Shown one piece after another: positions 33,061 to 51,535 of a stretch of 64,000 nt of DNA; position 1 is the first letter of the stretch, and every line of letters starts with the position of its first letter. Origin of the DNA: Minisyncoccota bacterium (lineage in GTDB: Bacteria; Patescibacteriota; Microgenomatia; UBA1400; PJMF01); NCBI GenBank assembly GCA_009991965.1, contig JAACWQ010000002.1:17617-81616 (forward strand), read 5' to 3'. Both the position numbers and the translations under genes were made by a program. The notes beneath the pieces were generated by a model. It was not told where the DNA came from and made no database searches. It was given only the letters and a program-made list of their open reading frames with translations.

Positions 33061-33345
33061 GTTTTTTAATGGCGATTAGTAGGAAACGTTAGCATCTTTT
33101 GCACTGCTGCATTGTTGTCTACTTCTCCAAAAAGCACAGGCAAGAGTATGCAGAGTATCTGATCCAAAGTGTGGTGAGATTTAAGACTAGCTTCAACCGG
33201 AGTTGGAACCTGCTTGCCCGTCTTCACATTGATAATTTCTGTTGGATATTCTGTTTCGGCGATAATCATAACAACTTCTTTTTTCTCGAAGCTGTGGAGA
33301 TTATACTCCTATCTGGCGCAGGAGCAATTATAGTAGAATAGCCTC

Positions 33346-34710
33346 ATGCGTCTTTTCAATACCCTTTCTCGCAGTGTCGAAGATTTTGTCCCGTTACATG
33401 CGCCAAATGTTTCTCTCTATGCCTGCGGCCTGACGGTTTATGATTACACCCACTTGGGGCATTTACGCAAATATACGCTCGATGATGTGCTGGTGCGCAC
33501 ACTCAGACACGCAGGTTTCAAGGTCGAATTTGTCCAAAACATTACTGATGTTGGGCACCTGGTTTCTGACGCTGATACTGGCGAAGACAAGCTCGAGAAG
33601 GGTGCCAAAAAATACCACAAGTCTGTCTGGGATATCGCCAAAGAGTTTGAAGCCTATTTTTTCAAAAGCATGGACGGCATGGGCAATCTACGGCCAGATG
33701 TTAGTTGCAGAGCGACGGAGCATATTGAGGCCCAGATTGCGCTGGTGCAGAAACTAGAACAAAAAGGGTTTACCTATAAAATTGAGGATGACGGTATGTA
33801 TTTTGACACCAGCAAATTGCCCGATTATGGCAAGTTGAATCCTCAGGAGCTTTCACAACTTCGCGAAGGGGAACGTATTGGTGTGGTTGTAGGTAAAAAA
33901 AACCCGACTGATTTTGCACTGTGGAAATTTGAAAAGCCAGGTGAAGATCGCCAAATGAGTTGGCCGAGCCCCTGGAGTGAGCGAGGTTTTCCCGGCTGGC
34001 ATATCGAGTGTAGCGCCATGAGCATGCAGTATTTGGGCGAACAAATTGATATCCACACGGGTGGTATTGACCATATTCCTGTACACCATAGCAACGAGAT
34101 AGCGCAGTCCGAAGCGGCGACTGGCAAGGTGCCATTTGTGCGCTTTTGGGTGCATCACAATCACTTGCAAGTAGATGGGCAGAAGATGAGTAAGTCTTTG
34201 GGTAACTTTTTTACGATCGACGATGTTATAGAGCGCAAGTTTAATCCGCGAGCACTTCGTTTGCTATTTTTGCAGGGACAGTATCGAGATCAAATGAATT
34301 TTACCTGGGAATCGTTGGTGGCGGTACAGACTGCGTATGATCGGCTGGCGCGGCAGGTGCAAAGTTGGGGGAGCGAAGTGGCACAGTTGAGTCCACAAGC
34401 AGAAAAACTGCGTCAGGCATTTTTTGCAGCACTTGCAGATGATTTAAAAACCGCGCAAGCGATTGCGACGCTGTGGGAGATGACAAAGAGTGAATTGCCA
34501 GTTGGCGAAAAGTTGCAGTTGTTTCGTGAGTTTGATGCAGTTTTACAGCTGGGCTTCGAGAACATACAGTCAGTTGAGCTATCCGCTGAAATCCAGCAAC
34601 TGCTGCAAGAGCGAGACAAAGCTCGAGCAGAGAAAAATTGGCAGAAGGCTGATGAACTGCGAGAAAAATTGTCTGATCTTGGGCATATGGTTGCCGACAT
34701 AAAACTTTAG
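33346..34710 (+). CDS. cysS: cysteinyl-tRNA synthetase
   Basis: YACGLTVYDYTHLGHLRKY (HIGH region), KMSKSLGN (KMSKS), zinc ligands. Confidence 0.9.
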   Translation: MRLFNTLSRSVEDFVPLHAPNVSLYACGLTVYDYTHLGHLRKYTLDDVLVRTLRHAGFKVEFVQNITDVGHLVSDADTGEDKLEKGAKKYHKSVWDIAKEFEAYFFKSMDGMGNLRPDVSCRATEHIEAQIALVQKLEQKGFTYKIEDDGMYFDTSKLPDYGKLNPQELSQLREGERIGVVVGKKNPTDFALWKFEKPGEDRQMSWPSPWSERGFPGWHIECSAMSMQYLGEQIDIHTGGIDHIPVHHSNEIAQSEAATGKVPFVRFWVHHNHLQVDGQKMSKSLGNFFTIDDVIERKFNPRALRLLFLQGQYRDQMNFTWESLVAVQTAYDRLARQVQSWGSEVAQLSPQAEKLRQAFFAALADDLKTAQAIATLWEMTKSELPVGEKLQLFREFDAVLQLGFENIQSVELSAEIQQLLQERDKARAEKNWQKADELREKLSDLGHMVADIKL

Positions 34711-44275: not shown

Positions 44276-44551
44276 ATGAGTACCATTCAAGCCCTCCCAA
44301 TATCTCAAGTTCGATCGCAACTTCCTAGTCTTGTCGACGATGTTGCCGTGCTATCTCGCAAAGTGCTCATCACCGTACAAGGCACTGTCCGCGCAGCGCT
44401 CGTGAATCCAGATGAGCTTGCGTATCTCGAAGAAACAGTGAGTGTTCTAGCAGATCCTACAACGATGAAAGCGATTGAACAGAGTAAAGAGGACGTGGCG
44501 GCAGGCAATGTTACAGACTGGCAGGACATTAAATCAGAGCTTGGTTTGTAG
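44276..44551 (+). CDS. yefM: type II antitoxin, Phd/YefM family
   Basis: 91 aa; MSTIQALPISQVRSQLPSLVDDV... (YefM N-terminal fold). Sits 2 nt upstream of a RelE-like gene. Confidence 0.75.
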   Translation: MSTIQALPISQVRSQLPSLVDDVAVLSRKVLITVQGTVRAALVNPDELAYLEETVSVLADPTTMKAIEQSKEDVAAGNVTDWQDIKSELGL

Positions 44552-44553
44552 CC

Positions 44554-44811
44554 ATGTACGGTATTCAATTTACCCGTTCGGCTAAGAAGTCATTTTCAAA
44601 GATCGCGAAACAAGAACAAGTTCGCATTGCAAAAGCAATAGAAAAATTGGCGGTTGATCCAACTATTGGCAAACCCCTACAGGGAGTGTTGAAAAATCAC
44701 TGGAGCCTGCGTATTGGAAGCTACCGGGTGATCTATGTAATTTTCAAAGAAAGATTGCTGGTTATAGTTTTTGATGTGGGGCACAGGCGTGAGGTTTACA
44801 AAGAGCGTTAG
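44554..44811 (+). CDS. relE: type II toxin, RelE/ParE family
   Basis: 85 aa; ...WSLRIGSYRVIYVIFKERLLVIVFDVGHRREVY matches the RelE family. Confidence 0.8.
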   Translation: MYGIQFTRSAKKSFSKIAKQEQVRIAKAIEKLAVDPTIGKPLQGVLKNHWSLRIGSYRVIYVIFKERLLVIVFDVGHRREVYKER

Positions 44812-46019
44812 CTAGTTATTTGCTCACCAGTCTCTAAGTTTTTGACCACATAGGTAGCATTTTTCACCTCTTCTTCGCCAACAATCACCGCAAACTTAGC
44901 CCCAATTTGACTGGCATACTTGAGTTGTTTGCCAATGCTGGTAGTGCCTGGATACAGCTGGGTGATTTTGCCCTCAGCGCGTAGTTTCTTGGCAATTCCA
45001 GCGGAAGCTGTTCGTAGTTCTGGCGAAAATACGGTGACTAGATACTCCAGAGAATTCGTACTGCTTGGAATAAGATCCAGTGTTTTAGCAGCTTCGACGA
45101 TCCGATCAAAGCCAAGACCAACGCCGACAGCGGGGATGTCAGACCCGCTCAAATTTTCAATCAAATTGTCATAGCGACCGCCACCGCCGCAAGATCCCGC
45201 GCCAGATTCTGGCACGATGATTTCAAAAATCATGCCGGTGTAGTAGTCGAGTCCACGCGCGAGGGTGGGGGAAAAGACGAGGGCAGACTTTGGAACACCC
45301 AAAGCTACCGTCAGCTCCATGATTGTTTGCAGTTGTGTAGATACTTCGACAGATTGCAGCGCTGTTAGCACAGCTTTGGCATCGCTTGCGCCTAGACCTT
45401 TGGCCACTAGCTCTGTTTCGACTTCTGCCGGGGTTTGTTTATCGAGTTTGTCGATAGATTGAATGAGCGAAAAGACGTCGACAGCGTTGTTTGCAAACGG
45501 CGAGAGCGAGTTTATGAGCGTTTGTCGATCATTGACGCGAACCTCAATTTTTTTGAAGCCAATCGCTGCCAGGCTCTGATAGCTGCAGGCGAGGATTTCG
45601 GCGTCACTGATGGGATCTTTGCTACCAAAAATATCAAAGTCACACTGGGTAAATTCGCGGTAGCGACCCTTTTGTGGTTTGTCAGCCCGGAAAACATTCT
45701 GCACTTGGTAGCGGCGAAAGTACTTGGGCAGATCATTTTGATATTGGCTGAGTAAACGGGCGGTAGGTACTGTTTGGTCATACCGCAAGGCCACCTCGCG
45801 CTCACCACGATCGGTAAACGAGTAGACCAGTTTGTCGGCTTCATCGCCATACTTACCGAGTAGCAGCGATGCATACTCGAGCGTTGGCGTCTCGACTGGT
45901 TCAAAGCCGAAGCGTTCGAACGCTTCGGTCATCTTGCTTTGGACGAAGTCGCGCGCGCGCTTTTCGGCGGGCAGAAAGTCGCGGAAGCCTTTGAGGGTTT
46001 GAACTTGTTGGTTTTTCAT
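44808..46019 (-). CDS. hisS: histidyl-tRNA synthetase
   Basis: KGFRDFLP (motif 1 region), class II aaRS core, C-terminal anticodon-binding domain. 403 aa. Confidence 0.9.
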   Translation of the reverse strand: MKNQQVQTLKGFRDFLPAEKRARDFVQSKMTEAFERFGFEPVETPTLEYASLLLGKYGDEADKLVYSFTDRGEREVALRYDQTVPTARLLSQYQNDLPKYFRRYQVQNVFRADKPQKGRYREFTQCDFDIFGSKDPISDAEILACSYQSLAAIGFKKIEVRVNDRQTLINSLSPFANNAVDVFSLIQSIDKLDKQTPAEVETELVAKGLGASDAKAVLTALQSVEVSTQLQTIMELTVALGVPKSALVFSPTLARGLDYYTGMIFEIIVPESGAGSCGGGGRYDNLIENLSGSDIPAVGVGLGFDRIVEAAKTLDLIPSSTNSLEYLVTVFSPELRTASAGIAKKLRAEGKITQLYPGTTSIGKQLKYASQIGAKFAVIVGEEEVKNATYVVKNLETGEQITS

Positions 46020-46048
46020 ATATTTTTCTTTCTTATTATAACCTAGAT

Positions 46049-46282
46049 TTATCCCAGCCTAGCTTCGCCTGCCTCAATTTGACGTTTCCATTCGGCAAGT
46101 ATCTCTGGATCTTCACCTGTTTCTTCCAACTCTTTTATCCACCACGCCATAATTTCACCACGTACCGGTGCGTTTTGGATTCGAAAGCAGTCGTTGGCCA
46201 TACGAGTTGTGCGATCAGTAATACCACGTTCCTCATCGCTTAAAAATAGTTCCTTACTTTCTTTATTCATATTTTCTTTCAT
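46049..46282 (-). CDS. small hypothetical protein between the hisS leader and hisS
   Basis: 77 aa from ATG 46282 (MKENMNKESKEL...WWIKELEETGEDPEILAEWKRQIEAGEARLG). The listed start at 46315 is a TTG inside the terminator T-tract and is rejected. No family recognised. Confidence 0.35.
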   Translation of the reverse strand: MKENMNKESKELFLSDEERGITDRTTRMANDCFRIQNAPVRGEIMAWWIKELEETGEDPEILAEWKRQIEAGEARLG

Positions 46283-46313
46283 TGACCAAACCAGAGAAGG
46301 GGGTCGAAAGCCC

Positions 46314-46338
46314 AAAAAAAGCTCCCGATTTTGGGAGC
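46314..46338 (-). terminator. intrinsic terminator GCUCCC-aaaauc-GGGAGC followed by U7 (minus strand), inside the hisS leader region
   Basis: Perfect 6-bp GC-rich stem plus TTTTTTT on the minus strand only, read directly from the sequence. Confidence 0.7.
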
Positions 46339-46374
46339 GCGTTCTTCTCTGATTTGGTTTGAAATAAGTACTAT

Positions 46375-46452
46375 TTATTTACGAGAAAACACTCCCACTG
46401 TATGCAGAGAGTGATGATGGATAGCTAGAATTTTTCGATACGATTGTGTCAT
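46375..46452 (-). CDS. candidate His-codon-rich leader peptide, 25 aa, MTQSYRKILAIHHHSLHTVGVFSRK
   Basis: Manual translation of the minus strand. The codons are ATC CAT CAT CAC TCT CTG CAT, giving 4 His in 7 codons. It lies between a near-consensus promoter and the intrinsic terminator, upstream of hisS. Shorter than 60 aa, so it is absent from the ORF track. Confidence 0.4.
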   Translation of the reverse strand: MTQSYRKILAIHHHSLHTVGVFSRK

Positions 46453-46461
46453 CGTCTGGCC

Positions 46462-46490
46462 ATTCTAACAGCCTATAGTGAGAGAGTCAA
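46462..46490 (-). promoter_or_regulatory. candidate sigma70-type promoter TTGACT-17-TAGAAT (minus strand) driving the leader transcript
   Basis: -35 is the reverse complement of 46485-46490 and -10 the reverse complement of 46462-46467, with an exact 17-nt spacer. The leader ATG lies 9 nt downstream of the -10, so the transcript would be leaderless or nearly so. Confidence 0.5.
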
Positions 46491-46532
46491 CTTACTGGAG
46501 TTTTCCTGCCACTCCGTGTACACTAGCTTTCT

Positions 46533-47015
46533 ATGCCAGAAACAACCATCTGTCCAAAATGTAATTCTCCACTCAGCGAAGCAACTGAGACACCAAATGG
46601 TCGTAAGCTCCAACGCTGCAGCAAGGGATCTTGGAATGCAGAAACGCGCCAAACAGAGGGTTGTGATTATGTGCTTTGGCTCGCCGTAGAACCAGAAACA
46701 CTCGACGAAAAATGTCCTAAGTGCGACGCACCTTTGGTATTACAAGTCACTCGATTTGGCAAAAAGATGAAAAAGTGCAGCACTAATACCTGGGATCCGA
46801 CGACCAAGACTGCTTCTGGTTGCGACTTTGTAGAGTGGATTAATGGCACCACAGAAGAAACTGATGAAAAATGTCCTGAGTGTGATGAGCCACTGGTGAT
46901 TTTTACTACCGCCAAAGGCAAGCGCATGAAAAAATGTTCGACCGCAGGTTGGGATCGAGAAACTCGTCAAGCAACTGGTTGTACACACATTGAGTGGCTG
47001 AACGCAAGTAAATAA
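46533..47015 (+). CDS. stand-alone protein built of three tandem topoisomerase-I-type C4 zinc-ribbon repeats
   Basis: Three ~50-aa repeats, CP(K/E)C(D/N)..PL......G(K)(K/R)M(K)KCS(T)..WD..T(K/R)...GC...EW, resembling the TopA C-terminal zinc ribbons seen in this window at 17820-18090. 160 aa. Confidence 0.7.
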   Translation: MPETTICPKCNSPLSEATETPNGRKLQRCSKGSWNAETRQTEGCDYVLWLAVEPETLDEKCPKCDAPLVLQVTRFGKKMKKCSTNTWDPTTKTASGCDFVEWINGTTEETDEKCPECDEPLVIFTTAKGKRMKKCSTAGWDRETRQATGCTHIEWLNASK

Positions 47016-49847: not shown

Positions 49848-51473
49848 CTATCCTTTTTTTCTTACTATTAGTCTTTTTTCTAGTTTGTGTATGAGACGTT
49901 CAGCAGTTGAGAACTCTGTGACGAGAGGTATATTATTCTTGATTGACCACTCTTGTATTATTGCTTGATCACGTTCGCTATCGGTTGATTGCTTGTTGTA
50001 GGGTACGTTGATGATAAGGTCAAAAAGATTTTGGCGCAAAACATCTTCGAGTGAAGGATGCGCACCCTCATACATTTTGTGAAGCAAAATAGATTTTACT
50101 TTTTGTTTAGCTAAATATGCGTGCGTATGTTGTGTGGCGTAGAAGTGAAAGCCAAGCTCTCTGAGACTTTTGATAAGTGGTAAAAACTTTTTCTTGTTTT
50201 TTTCTTCACCAATTGTTAGGAGTGCAAATCGCTCTTTTGCTTGTGCTAAGCGCATCTGCAATGTGTATATTTCGATAAAGCCCGCTGACGCATTTTGGTT
50301 GAACGCTGATGACTTCATAAAGGTAGCGAGTTTTTCGTCAAAGATACTATTAGCAGTCTCGACTGCCACTACTTCTGCCATGCCTTTGAATAATTTAATC
50401 GTGACTAGACCCGAAACTTTTTCGTTTATTTTATCGATAAAGGCATTGAGATCATCCATGAGCGGTTCGTACCAAAGTGCTCCATAGCAAAGATATGCCC
50501 ATTTGGTATCTATTTCTTGCTTAAATTGATTTTCTTCTCTGGTGGAAACATATTTTTCTAGATTAAAATGGGCGTTGATAATAATCTCTGCTGCAGGAGC
50601 CTCATAGAGGCCGCGCACCTTCAAGCCTACCAATCTATCTTCGATATGGTGTGCAATACCAATCGCATGTTGAGCTCCAATCTTATTGAGTTGATTAATG
50701 ATCTCAACAAGATCTAACTGTTTGTTATTGAGTTCAACAGGTAGACCTTTCACAAATTTTAGTTTTACATATTCTGGTTTGTTAAGTGCTTTTTCTGGTG
50801 TACGACACACTTGTAAAATTTTTTCAAGCGGAGGGATGAGTGCCGGGTTTTCAATCTCACCACTTTCGCCAGTCACTCCCCACATATTATCGTCATACGA
50901 ATAGGGGCTATCAATTGTCTGTTTGACTGGAATCTTGTGTTTTTTTGCATACGCGATTTCTTCGTCTCGGCCAAGAGACCACTCACGAACTGGTGCAATT
51001 ATTTTCATTTCTGGGGCAAGTGTCAAAATTGAACCTTCAATCCGTACTTGATCATTTCCTTTACCCGTAGAGCCGTGCGCAATGCAGTCTGCTCCTTCGG
51101 CTCGAGCTATATCTACTGCAAGTTTTGCTAGCAGGGGCCGACCCATTGGAGTCGATAGATAGTAGCGACCTTGATAGTGACTATTGGCTTTAATTCCTTT
51201 TGCTAGGTAGTGATAGGCAAACTCTTTTTTAGCATCAATCACAATTGCTTTAACAGCTCCCAACTTTTCCGCTTTGCGTCGAATCGCCTCCAGATCATCT
51301 GCCTGTTGCCCAATGTCTATCGTGAGTGCCACTACCTCTGCCTTATATTCGTCTTGGATCCATTTGAGCATGACGCTTGTGTCAAGTCCGCCAGAGTAGA
51401 GGAGGACAACTTTTTTAACTTCGCCTTTGTGGCCTTCGTAACTTGAAATTTTTTGGTAAACAGTTTGTTGCAT
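49848..51473 (-). CDS. argG: argininosuccinate synthase fused to a C-terminal methylglyoxal-synthase-like (MGS-like) domain
   Basis: VVLLYSGGLDTSVMLKWIQDEYKAEVVALTIDIGQ (PP-loop, ArgG N-terminus) and AHGSTGKGNDQVR, the ArgG core through ~residue 400. The C-terminal ~140 aa (FHFYATQHTHAYL...LFDLIINVPYNKQSTDSERD...NNIPLVTEF) resembles the MGS-like regulatory domain of CarB/PurH. Start taken at MQQTVYQ (ATG 51473, AAGGAA ribosome-binding site); the listed ORF extends to 51515. Confidence 0.7.
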   Translation of the reverse strand: MQQTVYQKISSYEGHKGEVKKVVLLYSGGLDTSVMLKWIQDEYKAEVVALTIDIGQQADDLEAIRRKAEKLGAVKAIVIDAKKEFAYHYLAKGIKANSHYQGRYYLSTPMGRPLLAKLAVDIARAEGADCIAHGSTGKGNDQVRIEGSILTLAPEMKIIAPVREWSLGRDEEIAYAKKHKIPVKQTIDSPYSYDDNMWGVTGESGEIENPALIPPLEKILQVCRTPEKALNKPEYVKLKFVKGLPVELNNKQLDLVEIINQLNKIGAQHAIGIAHHIEDRLVGLKVRGLYEAPAAEIIINAHFNLEKYVSTREENQFKQEIDTKWAYLCYGALWYEPLMDDLNAFIDKINEKVSGLVTIKLFKGMAEVVAVETANSIFDEKLATFMKSSAFNQNASAGFIEIYTLQMRLAQAKERFALLTIGEEKNKKKFLPLIKSLRELGFHFYATQHTHAYLAKQKVKSILLHKMYEGAHPSLEDVLRQNLFDLIINVPYNKQSTDSERDQAIIQEWSIKNNIPLVTEFSTAERLIHKLEKRLIVRKKG

Positions 51474-51535
51474 CGTTTCCTTAGTAGCTATTGTTAATAC
51501 TAGAACGAGAACCACAGAAAAAGACTAAAAAAAAT

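Follow-up and report, generated by a model that had tools for sequence, protein, structure and literature searches.

A 64,000-nt window of genomic DNA (the whole stretch that was analysed, to which all coordinates below refer) carries, on its minus strand and upstream of the histidyl-tRNA synthetase gene hisS, a short leader that is very probably a functional histidine-responsive, ribosome-mediated transcription attenuator controlling a small operon ending in hisS, as judged from its sequence and from that of its relatives. The host is a bacterium of the Candidate Phyla Radiation (CPR; Patescibacteria) of the Microgenomates type, because the same locus is present in GCA_002772675.1 and in several groundwater metagenomes and because the nearest HisS relatives among the GTDB species representatives belong to metagenome-assembled genomes (MAGs) labelled Pacebacteria, Woesebacteria, Roizmanbacteria, and Patescibacteria; it is not a Firmicute, the frame of reference in which a preliminary description of this DNA had been cast. 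Besides GCA_002772675.1, the contig is also represented in ERZ27293386, in JGI 3300004210, 3300025150, and 3300007986, and in SRR6053076. The leader region (251 nt) is 100% identical across six independent assemblies and is therefore not an assembly artefact.

The leader consists of a sigma-70-type promoter (10/12 consensus matches), a 25-codon open reading frame (ORF) with three consecutive His codons and a fourth close behind, and an intrinsic terminator whose stem starts 36 nt past the leader stop codon; the preliminary description had placed all three correctly to the base (Table 1, in which related loci are designated by L numbers). Within this unit CACUCUC (segment 1) is complementary to GGGAGUG (segment 2), which is also complementary to CGCUCCC (segment 3), and segment 3 contains the 5′ arm of the terminator. 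A gene for a zinc-ribbon protein diverges upstream on the plus strand from 46533, and the 250-nt gap that it leaves is a divergent promoter region, so the hairpin is ruled out as the 3′ terminator of a gene lying upstream.

In the proposed mechanism, transcription would start at, or a few nucleotides before, the leader ATG, and the ORF would be translated from a leaderless or near-leaderless message. When histidine is plentiful, the ribosome would pass codons 12-14 toward the stop codon and cover segment 2 together with UUUUCUC, upon which the GCUCCC/GGGAGC-U7 terminator would form and the transcript would end at ~140 nt; without translation, segment 1 would pair with segment 2, and the terminator would form too. 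When charged tRNA-His is scarce, the ribosome would stall on CAU-CAU-CAC and cover segment 1, and segment 2 would stay free because it starts 17 nt past the last His codon of the run; free segment 2, extended by a helper helix (UUUUCUC:GAGAAGA), would then pair with CGCUCCC and allow read-through into a 73-aa ORF and hisS. The transcription start, translation of the leader, stalling, the efficiency of termination, and the physiological response are steps that we infer from the sequence; the features themselves and how well they are conserved, the pairings that exclude one another, and the connection with histidine genes are computed and are set out below.

The unconstrained minimum free energy (MFE) fold of the 142-nt window transcript (-30 kcal/mol) holds the 1:2 hairpin (CACUC.CUGC/GUGGGAGUG), the helper helix, and the terminator. 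A stalled ribosome was mimicked by masking 30 nt around His12, His13, or His14; nascent RNA masked in this way forms a 14-15-bp antiterminator, in which GGGAGUG:CGCUCCC is stacked on UUUUCUC:GAGAAGA over a 3-nt bulge, with an energy of -20.6 to -23.0 kcal/mol that varies with the length of RNA that has emerged. By stacking on the 2:3 pairing, the helper helix brings segments 2 and 3 together. When the mask represents a ribosome at the stop codon, segment 2 is covered and the terminator is free to form. Comparable folds were obtained with related leaders: with a footprint on the His codons, the terminator 5′ arm pairs upstream in 12/13 of them, and in most of the 13 the unmasked MFE fold contains 1:2 plus the terminator. 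The 2:3 duplex is stronger than in mononucleotide shuffles (Fisher-combined p ~8e-6, six lineages), and the 1:2, 2:3, 3:4 geometry of classical attenuators that had been proposed from the window sequence is thus supported both by constrained folds and by shuffle statistics. The run's last His codon precedes segment 2 by 12-22 nt (mostly 16-18; 17 in the window), and the leader stop codon falls in a range from 25 nt ahead of the start of segment 2 to 8 nt past it, spacings that fit ribosome footprint logic. A terminator is present in all members.

Conservation within the subtype to which the window belongs was examined in nine distinct sequences (the window, L008, L092/L009, L087, L089, L090, L091, L097, and L098), assembled by scanning metagenome contigs with a degenerate pattern that specified the His codons and segment 2 only, without the ORF start, by BLASTN against related loci, and by look-ups of homologues of the 73-aa ORF; one hit of the pattern scan, L093, was rejected as a GC-rich false positive. 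An in-frame ATG lies exactly 11 codons ahead of HHH in 9/9 sequences, and the leader frame is free of in-frame stops in all nine, while the two other frames hold 0-3 stops. The run itself is rare, in-frame CAYCAYCAY occurring at 0.07 per kb (any frame) in 859 kb of related loci. The copy in L008, found by BLASTN, is 72% identical to the window (its HisS is 69% identical) and has the same promoter, a 25-codon ORF, and the terminator arms of the window; L092/L009 encodes the L008 peptide from different DNA. The invariant core of the subtype is CAYCAYCAC-UYYCU-N-CAU-N4-UGGGAGUG plus the terminator, and the 11 codons ahead of HHH show almost no conservation. Past the His run, constraint appears to act on the RNA and not on the peptide, because a Ser-to-Phe change in L098 (UCU to UUC) retains pairing with GGGAGUG and because L008 carries synonymous changes in codons for His (CAT/CAC), Ser, Leu, and Ala; where segment 1 varies between U and C, a G-U pair is simply exchanged for a G-C pair. 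In an 8-sequence alignment the 1:2 and 2:3 cells are 100% paired, vs. 40-78% when the partner is slid.

The same design recurs in leaders of very different sequence. When the 350-400 nt upstream of hisS were scanned in 80 species-level relatives, about 8-9 proved to have such a leader, all of them with a HisS at least 57% identical to that of the window. In the diverged leaders of other Microgenomates (L010, L011, L013, L037, L021, and, as a sixth, L032) TTGAC(N)-17-TAnnnT ends 8-11 nt ahead of the ATG (for L032 the -10 box alone fell inside the stretch examined), and a G-rich segment 2 is complementary both to a C/U-rich stretch at or after the His codons and to the leader's own terminator 5′ arm, the terminators being ACCCGC/GCGGGU, GAUCCCC/GGGGAUU, ACCCUCU/GGAGGGU, CCCGCU/AGCGGG, or ACUCCC/GGGAGU. 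HH(H), preceded by 9-12 variable codons, is the sole peptide feature common to all subtypes and is kept in about 14 related leaders. Common to the nine subtype and five to six diverged leaders are a -10 box 6-12 nt before the ATG, HH(H), segments 1 and 2, and a terminator, and the arrangement occurs in at least 14 distinct sequences from different genomes or metagenomes. Conservation of the His codons and terminator upstream of orthologous hisS genes, a check suggested in the preliminary description, is therefore seen in the subtype and in the diverged leaders alike. For L007, the closest relative (HisS 81% identical), the contig covers no more than 128 nt ahead of hisS, and in L027 and L028 a nearby tRNA-Ala gene leaves too little space before hisS for a leader. 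An HHHH short ORF in L051 was rejected as a leader, being the C-terminus of a larger TrpR/YerC-like ORF that is not followed by a terminator.

Several further observations concern the upstream regions of hisS. A conserved TATAGG(C/T)TG motif, perhaps an operator or a promoter-specific element, occurs within the promoter spacer of window-type leaders, at 46471-46478 (minus strand) in the window and at the same position in L008, L090, L091, and L098. In the leaders of L010, L011, and L021, TATAGGAT makes up the -10 region. In many relatives a tRNA-Ala(CGC) gene is found divergent just upstream of the hisS leader, on the minus strand, as at L010:2202-2275, L011:2175-2248, L013:2187-2260, and L021:2134-2207. 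In L085 (Daviesbacteria MAG) hisS is preceded by a leader of ~200 nt (2277-2475) with a consensus promoter and a strong terminator, in which neither a His-codon ORF nor an Rfam match was found; it may be a different, undescribed sensor for hisS.

The genes that follow the leader tie it to histidine in another way. hisS is present downstream in every leader locus, either directly or behind a variable set of genes (Table 1), and every identifiable passenger gene is connected with histidine, which constitutes an independent tie of the leader His codons to function. In the window, hisS begins 29 nt past the 73-aa ORF, and no terminator was found between them. The preliminary description had noted a small ORF ahead of hisS; the ORF is present, its start being most likely the second ATG (46270), which gives 73 aa, because the two ATGs are in different frames in L090 and the conserved small ORF opens with the second. 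No Pfam or NCBIfam match to the 73-aa ORF was found, and a search of 5.8 billion proteins returned 3 homologous clusters only; wherever the context of a homologue was examined, it lay between a His leader and hisS. Conservation extends from the terminator into the opening codons of the gene that follows, even in loci where that gene is a different one. The histidine pathway in the cassettes is incomplete, a hint that histidine may be salvaged or interconverted and not made de novo.

The promoter spacing at the start of the leader ORF is itself a family property. The -10 box lies 6-12 nt ahead of the ATG in every family member, and no Shine-Dalgarno-like motif was found between the two in any of them. 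Transcription usually starts ~7 nt past the -10 box, and the leader ORF is probably leaderless or near-leaderless. Across the window, 7/10 start codons located 5-12 nt after TTGnnn-16/18-TAnnnT open ORFs of at least 60 codons, vs. 25% of all ATG/GTG (P = 0.003), and leaderless messages seem, on this count, to be common in the organism. The probable near-leaderless start, which the preliminary description regarded as unusual, is no oddity: its promoter spacing characterizes the whole family, such starts seem common in the genome, and there is a mycobacterial precedent (Canestrari et al., bioRxiv 10.1101/834739). Among the genes with a -10 box close to the ATG is the cysteinyl-tRNA synthetase gene cysS, with a TAGAAT 6 nt ahead of its ATG (33320-33348, plus strand); no Cys-rich leader, terminator, or T-box was found in its upstream region.

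Several results weigh against an attenuator of this kind. The 5′ UTR of 0-5 nt is a prediction from promoter spacing only. Full-length RNA with masked His codons slightly favors the terminator fold (-24.3 kcal/mol) over the antiterminator (-23.0 kcal/mol). The 2:3 pairing, which the preliminary description had required to be competitive, does compete, the two folds being nearly isoenergetic; read-through must therefore be decided kinetically, and the choice would fall during transcription, as in classical leaders. A ribosome stalled at the conserved His17 covers part of segment 2 and would favor termination. The 1:2 duplex is only marginally stronger than in shuffles (p ~0.04), an effect of base composition, since C/U-rich and G-rich stretches pair in whatever order their bases stand. 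No compensatory changes were found in the 1:2, 2:3, or 3:4 helices within the nine-member subtype; the covariation test is neutral, since the attenuator segments are invariant there, and the only support for the structure is its recurrence across subtypes together with the shuffle statistics. The terminator stem of L090 has just 4 bp, and L025 (Roizmanbacteria), which has the three-hairpin logic with a single His codon, was left ambiguous. The whole case, finally, is one of sequence analysis only.

Beyond the terminator, a second structure has to be considered. In read-through RNA a long-range helix encloses the terminator; it is found in the MFE fold of 6/6 read-through RNAs folded, and its 9-bp core is paired in 8/8 of the sequences in which a gene other than hisS follows the terminator. 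Three of its pairs show double compensatory changes, a count reached by 10/500 shuffles, and its covariation score is reached by 2/500; L008 and L092 extend the helix outward, not inward. A possible fifth segment could pair with the terminator 3′ arm in the same RNA (85% of cells paired; changes one-sided, with no double changes). The long-range helix could gate translation or processing of the read-through RNA. In one alternative explanation the switch is mainly translational, or two-level, working through the helix and an outer UUUCA:UGAAA pairing near the ribosome-binding region of the first gene, with the terminator secondary. The compensatory changes and the regular pairing of the helix speak for such a switch, as do its shared GAGAAG, through which it would compete with the antiterminator helper helix, and the precedent of mycobacterial leaderless polycysteine short ORFs (Canestrari et al., bioRxiv 10.1101/834739). 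However, the helix was not found in L091 or in the short leaders L010, L011, L013, L021, and L037, and yet the short leaders, which stand directly before hisS, keep the terminator and the 1:2/2:3/3:4 logic; its 3′ arm ends ~15 nt before the start codon, a putative GAAAG ribosome-binding motif being covered in a subset only, and the three compensatory changes all come from the single lineage L090. We consider this alternative unlikely. Somewhat less doubtful, and still speculative, is a wider proposal in which the leaderless attenuator and the long-range helix (possibly with a 4:5 pairing) form a portable two-tier histidine switch of CPR bacteria, the helix gating the read-through mRNA and the module, including the first downstream codons, having repeatedly captured histidine-related cassettes.

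The remaining explanations dispense with attenuation by a translating ribosome. An untranslated RNA sensor, either a minimal T-box-like element binding uncharged tRNA-His or a leader bound by a protein, would make the His codons and the ORF incidental; CAU/CAC could pair with the tRNA-His anticodon, UGGG of segment 2 is complementary to the CCCA 3′ end expected of tRNA-His, and aminoacyl-tRNA synthetase genes are often T-box controlled. Such a sensor is very improbable: searches at the gathering score, at E up to 10 (window), and at E up to 1 (nine related loci) found no T-box, the stretch of ~35 nt ahead of the His codons is too short, and varies too much, to hold a Stem I, segment 2 has no UGGG in L037, L021, or L032, and a sensor of this type gives no reason for tandem His codons, an ATG at a fixed distance by the -10 box, or a single stop-free frame. 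An independent gene for a small RNA or a 25-aa micro-protein, with the downstream genes using their own promoters, would account for the compactness of the promoter-to-terminator unit (~140 nt) and for a TATAAT-like hexamer 15 nt upstream of the hisS ATG, and released attenuator RNAs can act in trans in other bacteria (rnTrpL; PMC6614838). It has still less to recommend it, since the unit always stands directly before hisS, or before histidine-related genes plus hisS, on the same strand despite differing intervening genes, since the complementarity between segment 2 and the terminator arm is kept across lineages, and since the peptide beyond the His run is conserved only where the RNA pairs. 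Mere juxtaposition of promoter-like hexamers, a short ORF, and a hairpin has a negligible probability. Taken singly, the motifs are no commoner than chance would have it (in a 3.5-kb scan, 2 promoter-like sites vs. 4.4 expected and 6 terminator-like sites vs. 3.7 expected from shuffles), and the fold of the window leader has a z-score of -2.4; with the promoter and terminator motifs individually non-significant, the case beyond chance rests on conservation, and the conservation of the whole arrangement in at least 14 distinct sequences effectively refutes chance.

A histidine-responsive attenuator of the hisS operon is thus preferred, and it shares much with known systems. Like the enterobacterial hisL (RF00514), trpL, thrL, leuL, and pheL leaders, it has tandem cognate codons, overlapping 1:2/2:3/3:4 pairings, and an intrinsic terminator. 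hisL likewise controls histidine genes, and the related leader of L009/L092 precedes hisG-like, hisD, and hisS genes; in contrast to hisL, which has 7 His codons, the present leader has 3 (+1), lacks a Shine-Dalgarno sequence, is predicted to have almost no 5′ UTR, occurs in a CPR host, matches no Rfam leader, and has, as its constant target, the synthetase gene hisS rather than a biosynthetic operon. In the pheM-pheST attenuator of E. coli a leader peptide controls an aminoacyl-tRNA synthetase operon via cognate codons; the logic is the same as here, whereas the amino acid and the phylum differ, pheM has a normal ribosome-binding site, and there is no homology. The T-box (RF00230) of Firmicute hisS serves the same gene, responds to the same signal (uncharged tRNA-His), and also chooses between antiterminator and terminator, but it binds tRNA directly, whereas sensing here would be by the translating ribosome, and the present leader has no Stem I, T-box sequence, or Rfam match. 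Rfam searches of the window at the gathering score gave no match to His_leader (RF00514), the T-box, or any other leader, and a search of 45900-46700 at E up to 10 gave no leader-family or T-box match; the absence of a T-box at this locus and upstream of cysS, noted earlier, is borne out by these searches and by inspection of the cysS region. Among 29 related loci, nine of them searched at E up to 1, Rfam found tRNAs and sub-threshold noise only, the single leader-family match in the nine being a sub-threshold Trp_leader in L021 (27.7 bits vs. a gathering score of 41).

Two published systems come closer in particular respects. Naville and Gautheret (2010; PMC2965389) predicted a histidine leader peptide before hisS*, a Bacillus paralog of hisS, and before hisZ, so that a His-codon leader on a histidyl-tRNA synthetase gene, thought in the preliminary description to be undescribed, has a predicted precedent. 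The Bacillus leader also combines a short ORF containing His codons with a premature terminator and is likewise computational only; it belongs, however, to a Firmicute paralog, the main hisS there being T-box controlled, whereas the present leader precedes the single hisS of a CPR genome, and the two are likened by description, not by sequence. In mycobacteria, leaderless polycysteine short ORFs lie at the 5′ end of operons, and stalling on them remodels the downstream RNA (Canestrari et al., bioRxiv 10.1101/834739); there a sequestered ribosome-binding site is freed and translation is controlled, whereas here the terminator is a canonical intrinsic one and the codons are His, not Cys. Full-text searches of the literature found no paper joining Patescibacteria with transcription attenuation and no amino-acid attenuator described for Microgenomates. 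Novelty lies in the phylum, in the family, and in the way in which a probable leaderless start, hisS as target, and a long-range helix are combined, and not in the mechanism.

Table 1. Features of the hisS leader and operon in the window, with the leader peptides and intervening genes of related loci (coordinates without a locus name in the first part are those of the 64,000-nt window).
Feature	Coordinates	Strand	Remarks
-35 hexamer TTGACT	46490-46485	minus	TTGAC invariant in 7-sequence alignment
-10 hexamer TAGAAT	46467-46462	minus	Upstream TG; 17-nt spacer to -35; 9 nt to ATG
Leader start codon ATG	46452-46450	minus	
Leader ORF, window, MTQSYRKILAIHHHSLHTVGVFSRK	46452-46375	minus	25 codons + TAA (46377-46375)
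His codons CAT CAT CAC (codons 12-14)	46419-46411	minus	
Fourth His codon CAT (His17)	46404-46402	minus	
Segment 1, CACUCUC	46413-46407	minus	Overlaps His14-Ser-Leu; pairs with segment 2 in MFE fold; paired in 8/8 sequences
Segment 2, GGGAGUG	46396-46390	minus	Partner is segment 1 (anti-antiterminator) or segment 3 (antiterminator)
Helper helix 5′ half, UUUUCUC	46389-46383	minus	87.5% of cells paired
Long-range helix 5′ arm, ACCAAAUCAGAGAAG	46358-46344	minus	Shares GAGAAG with antiterminator helper helix
Helper helix 3′ half, GAGAAGA	46349-46343	minus	Overlaps long-range helix 5′ arm
Segment 3, CGCUCCC	46339-46333	minus	Includes terminator 5′ arm GCUCCC (46338-46333)
Terminator loop AAAATC	between 46333 and 46326	minus	
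Segment 4, GGGAGC (terminator 3′ arm) + U7	46326-46321 (arm), 46320-46314 (U7)	minus	
Possible segment 5, GCUUUC	46306-46311	minus	Can pair with terminator 3′ arm in read-through RNA; weak evidence
Long-range helix 3′ arm, CUUCUCUGGUUUGGU	46299-46285	minus	Past terminator, just upstream of invariant UGAAAG before start codon
Orphan 73-aa ORF	46049-46270	minus	First regulated gene
hisS, histidyl-tRNA synthetase	44808-46019	minus	403 aa; Pfam tRNA-synt_His + HGTP_anticodon
Genes between leader and hisS, L091 and short leaders			None
Genes between leader and hisS, window, L087, L090, L098			Orphan 73-77-aa ORF
Genes between leader and hisS, L097	2728-3411		Orphan ORF + CntK_N histidine-racemase-like protein
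Genes between leader and hisS, L008	1804-2496		Histidine-racemase-like protein, NCBIfam CntK/HisR, below cut-off
Genes between leader and hisS, L009/L092	L009:116-2433		HisG-like + HisD (TIGR00069, 450 bits)
Genes between leader and hisS, L089	9013-11541	minus	HisG-like, HAD phosphatase, orphan ORF, racemase-like
Leader peptide, L098			MRRLLIKISVIHHHFLHTMGVFSRR
Leader peptide, L087			MEFNVCSKTSAHHHSLHTVGVFSRR
Leader peptide, L097			MTKLFSQTPAIHHHSLHTVGVFSGS
Leader peptide, L089			MSIDLRSKNKVHHHSLHAVGVFSRTIF
Leader peptide, L090			MKNCYTVAPAIHHHSLHIVGVSSRL
Leader peptide, L008			MINNYRQTLAIHHHSLHIMGVRSRV
Leader peptide, L092/L009			MINNYRQTLAIHHHSLHIMGVRSRV
Leader peptide, L091			MALFTLPTSIVHHHSLHIVGVNFGA
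Diverged leader upstream of hisS, L010			MTKVAVKLAHHHSLR
Diverged leader upstream of hisS, L011			MLLSNATTQVHHHTLL
Diverged leader upstream of hisS, L013			MQKINEKTSVFHHHSST
Diverged leader upstream of hisS, L037			MQYKTTKNTESHHHPLSRGL
Diverged leader upstream of hisS, L021			MQQLQMCSVAHHTLS
Diverged leader, sixth, L032			MRVQQLSASLFFHHPRHTVRG

Elsewhere in the window, a Phd/YefM antitoxin and ParE toxin pair (44276-44811, plus strand) converges on hisS, the end of the ParE ORF overlapping the hisS stop codon by 4 nt, and the pair occupies the same position in several relatives. Next to an amidohydrolase gene stands a gene for a 555-aa protein (49848-51515, minus strand) in which argininosuccinate synthase is fused to a C-terminal MGS-like domain, which is unusual for a CPR genome with reduced biosynthesis. 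The terminator before this argininosuccinate-synthase-like gene (51552-51534, minus strand) was rejected as a second leader candidate: it is the 3′ terminator of the preceding aminopeptidase-like gene, whose end the apparent mini-ORF overlaps.

To our knowledge, almost nothing is known about gene regulation in CPR/Patescibacteria, and the hisS leader would be the first well-supported cis-regulatory switch for these bacteria that we could find in the literature searched. If the proposed attenuator is real, reduced and mostly uncultured CPR bacteria use a textbook ribosome-stalling mechanism, which would imply that they have coupled transcription and translation, intrinsic termination, and sigma-70-type promoters, and they would appear to use leaderless initiation as well. 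Leader-peptide control would be extended to a sole histidyl-tRNA synthetase gene, and a small, variable set of histidine-related genes, together with one orphan protein, would be flagged as co-regulated, providing a handle on how CPR organisms cope with histidine limitation. Should the two-tier, cassette-capturing form of the switch also prove true, it would suggest that organisms believed to be without amino-acid biosynthesis have a histidine-salvage physiology that has gone unrecognised.

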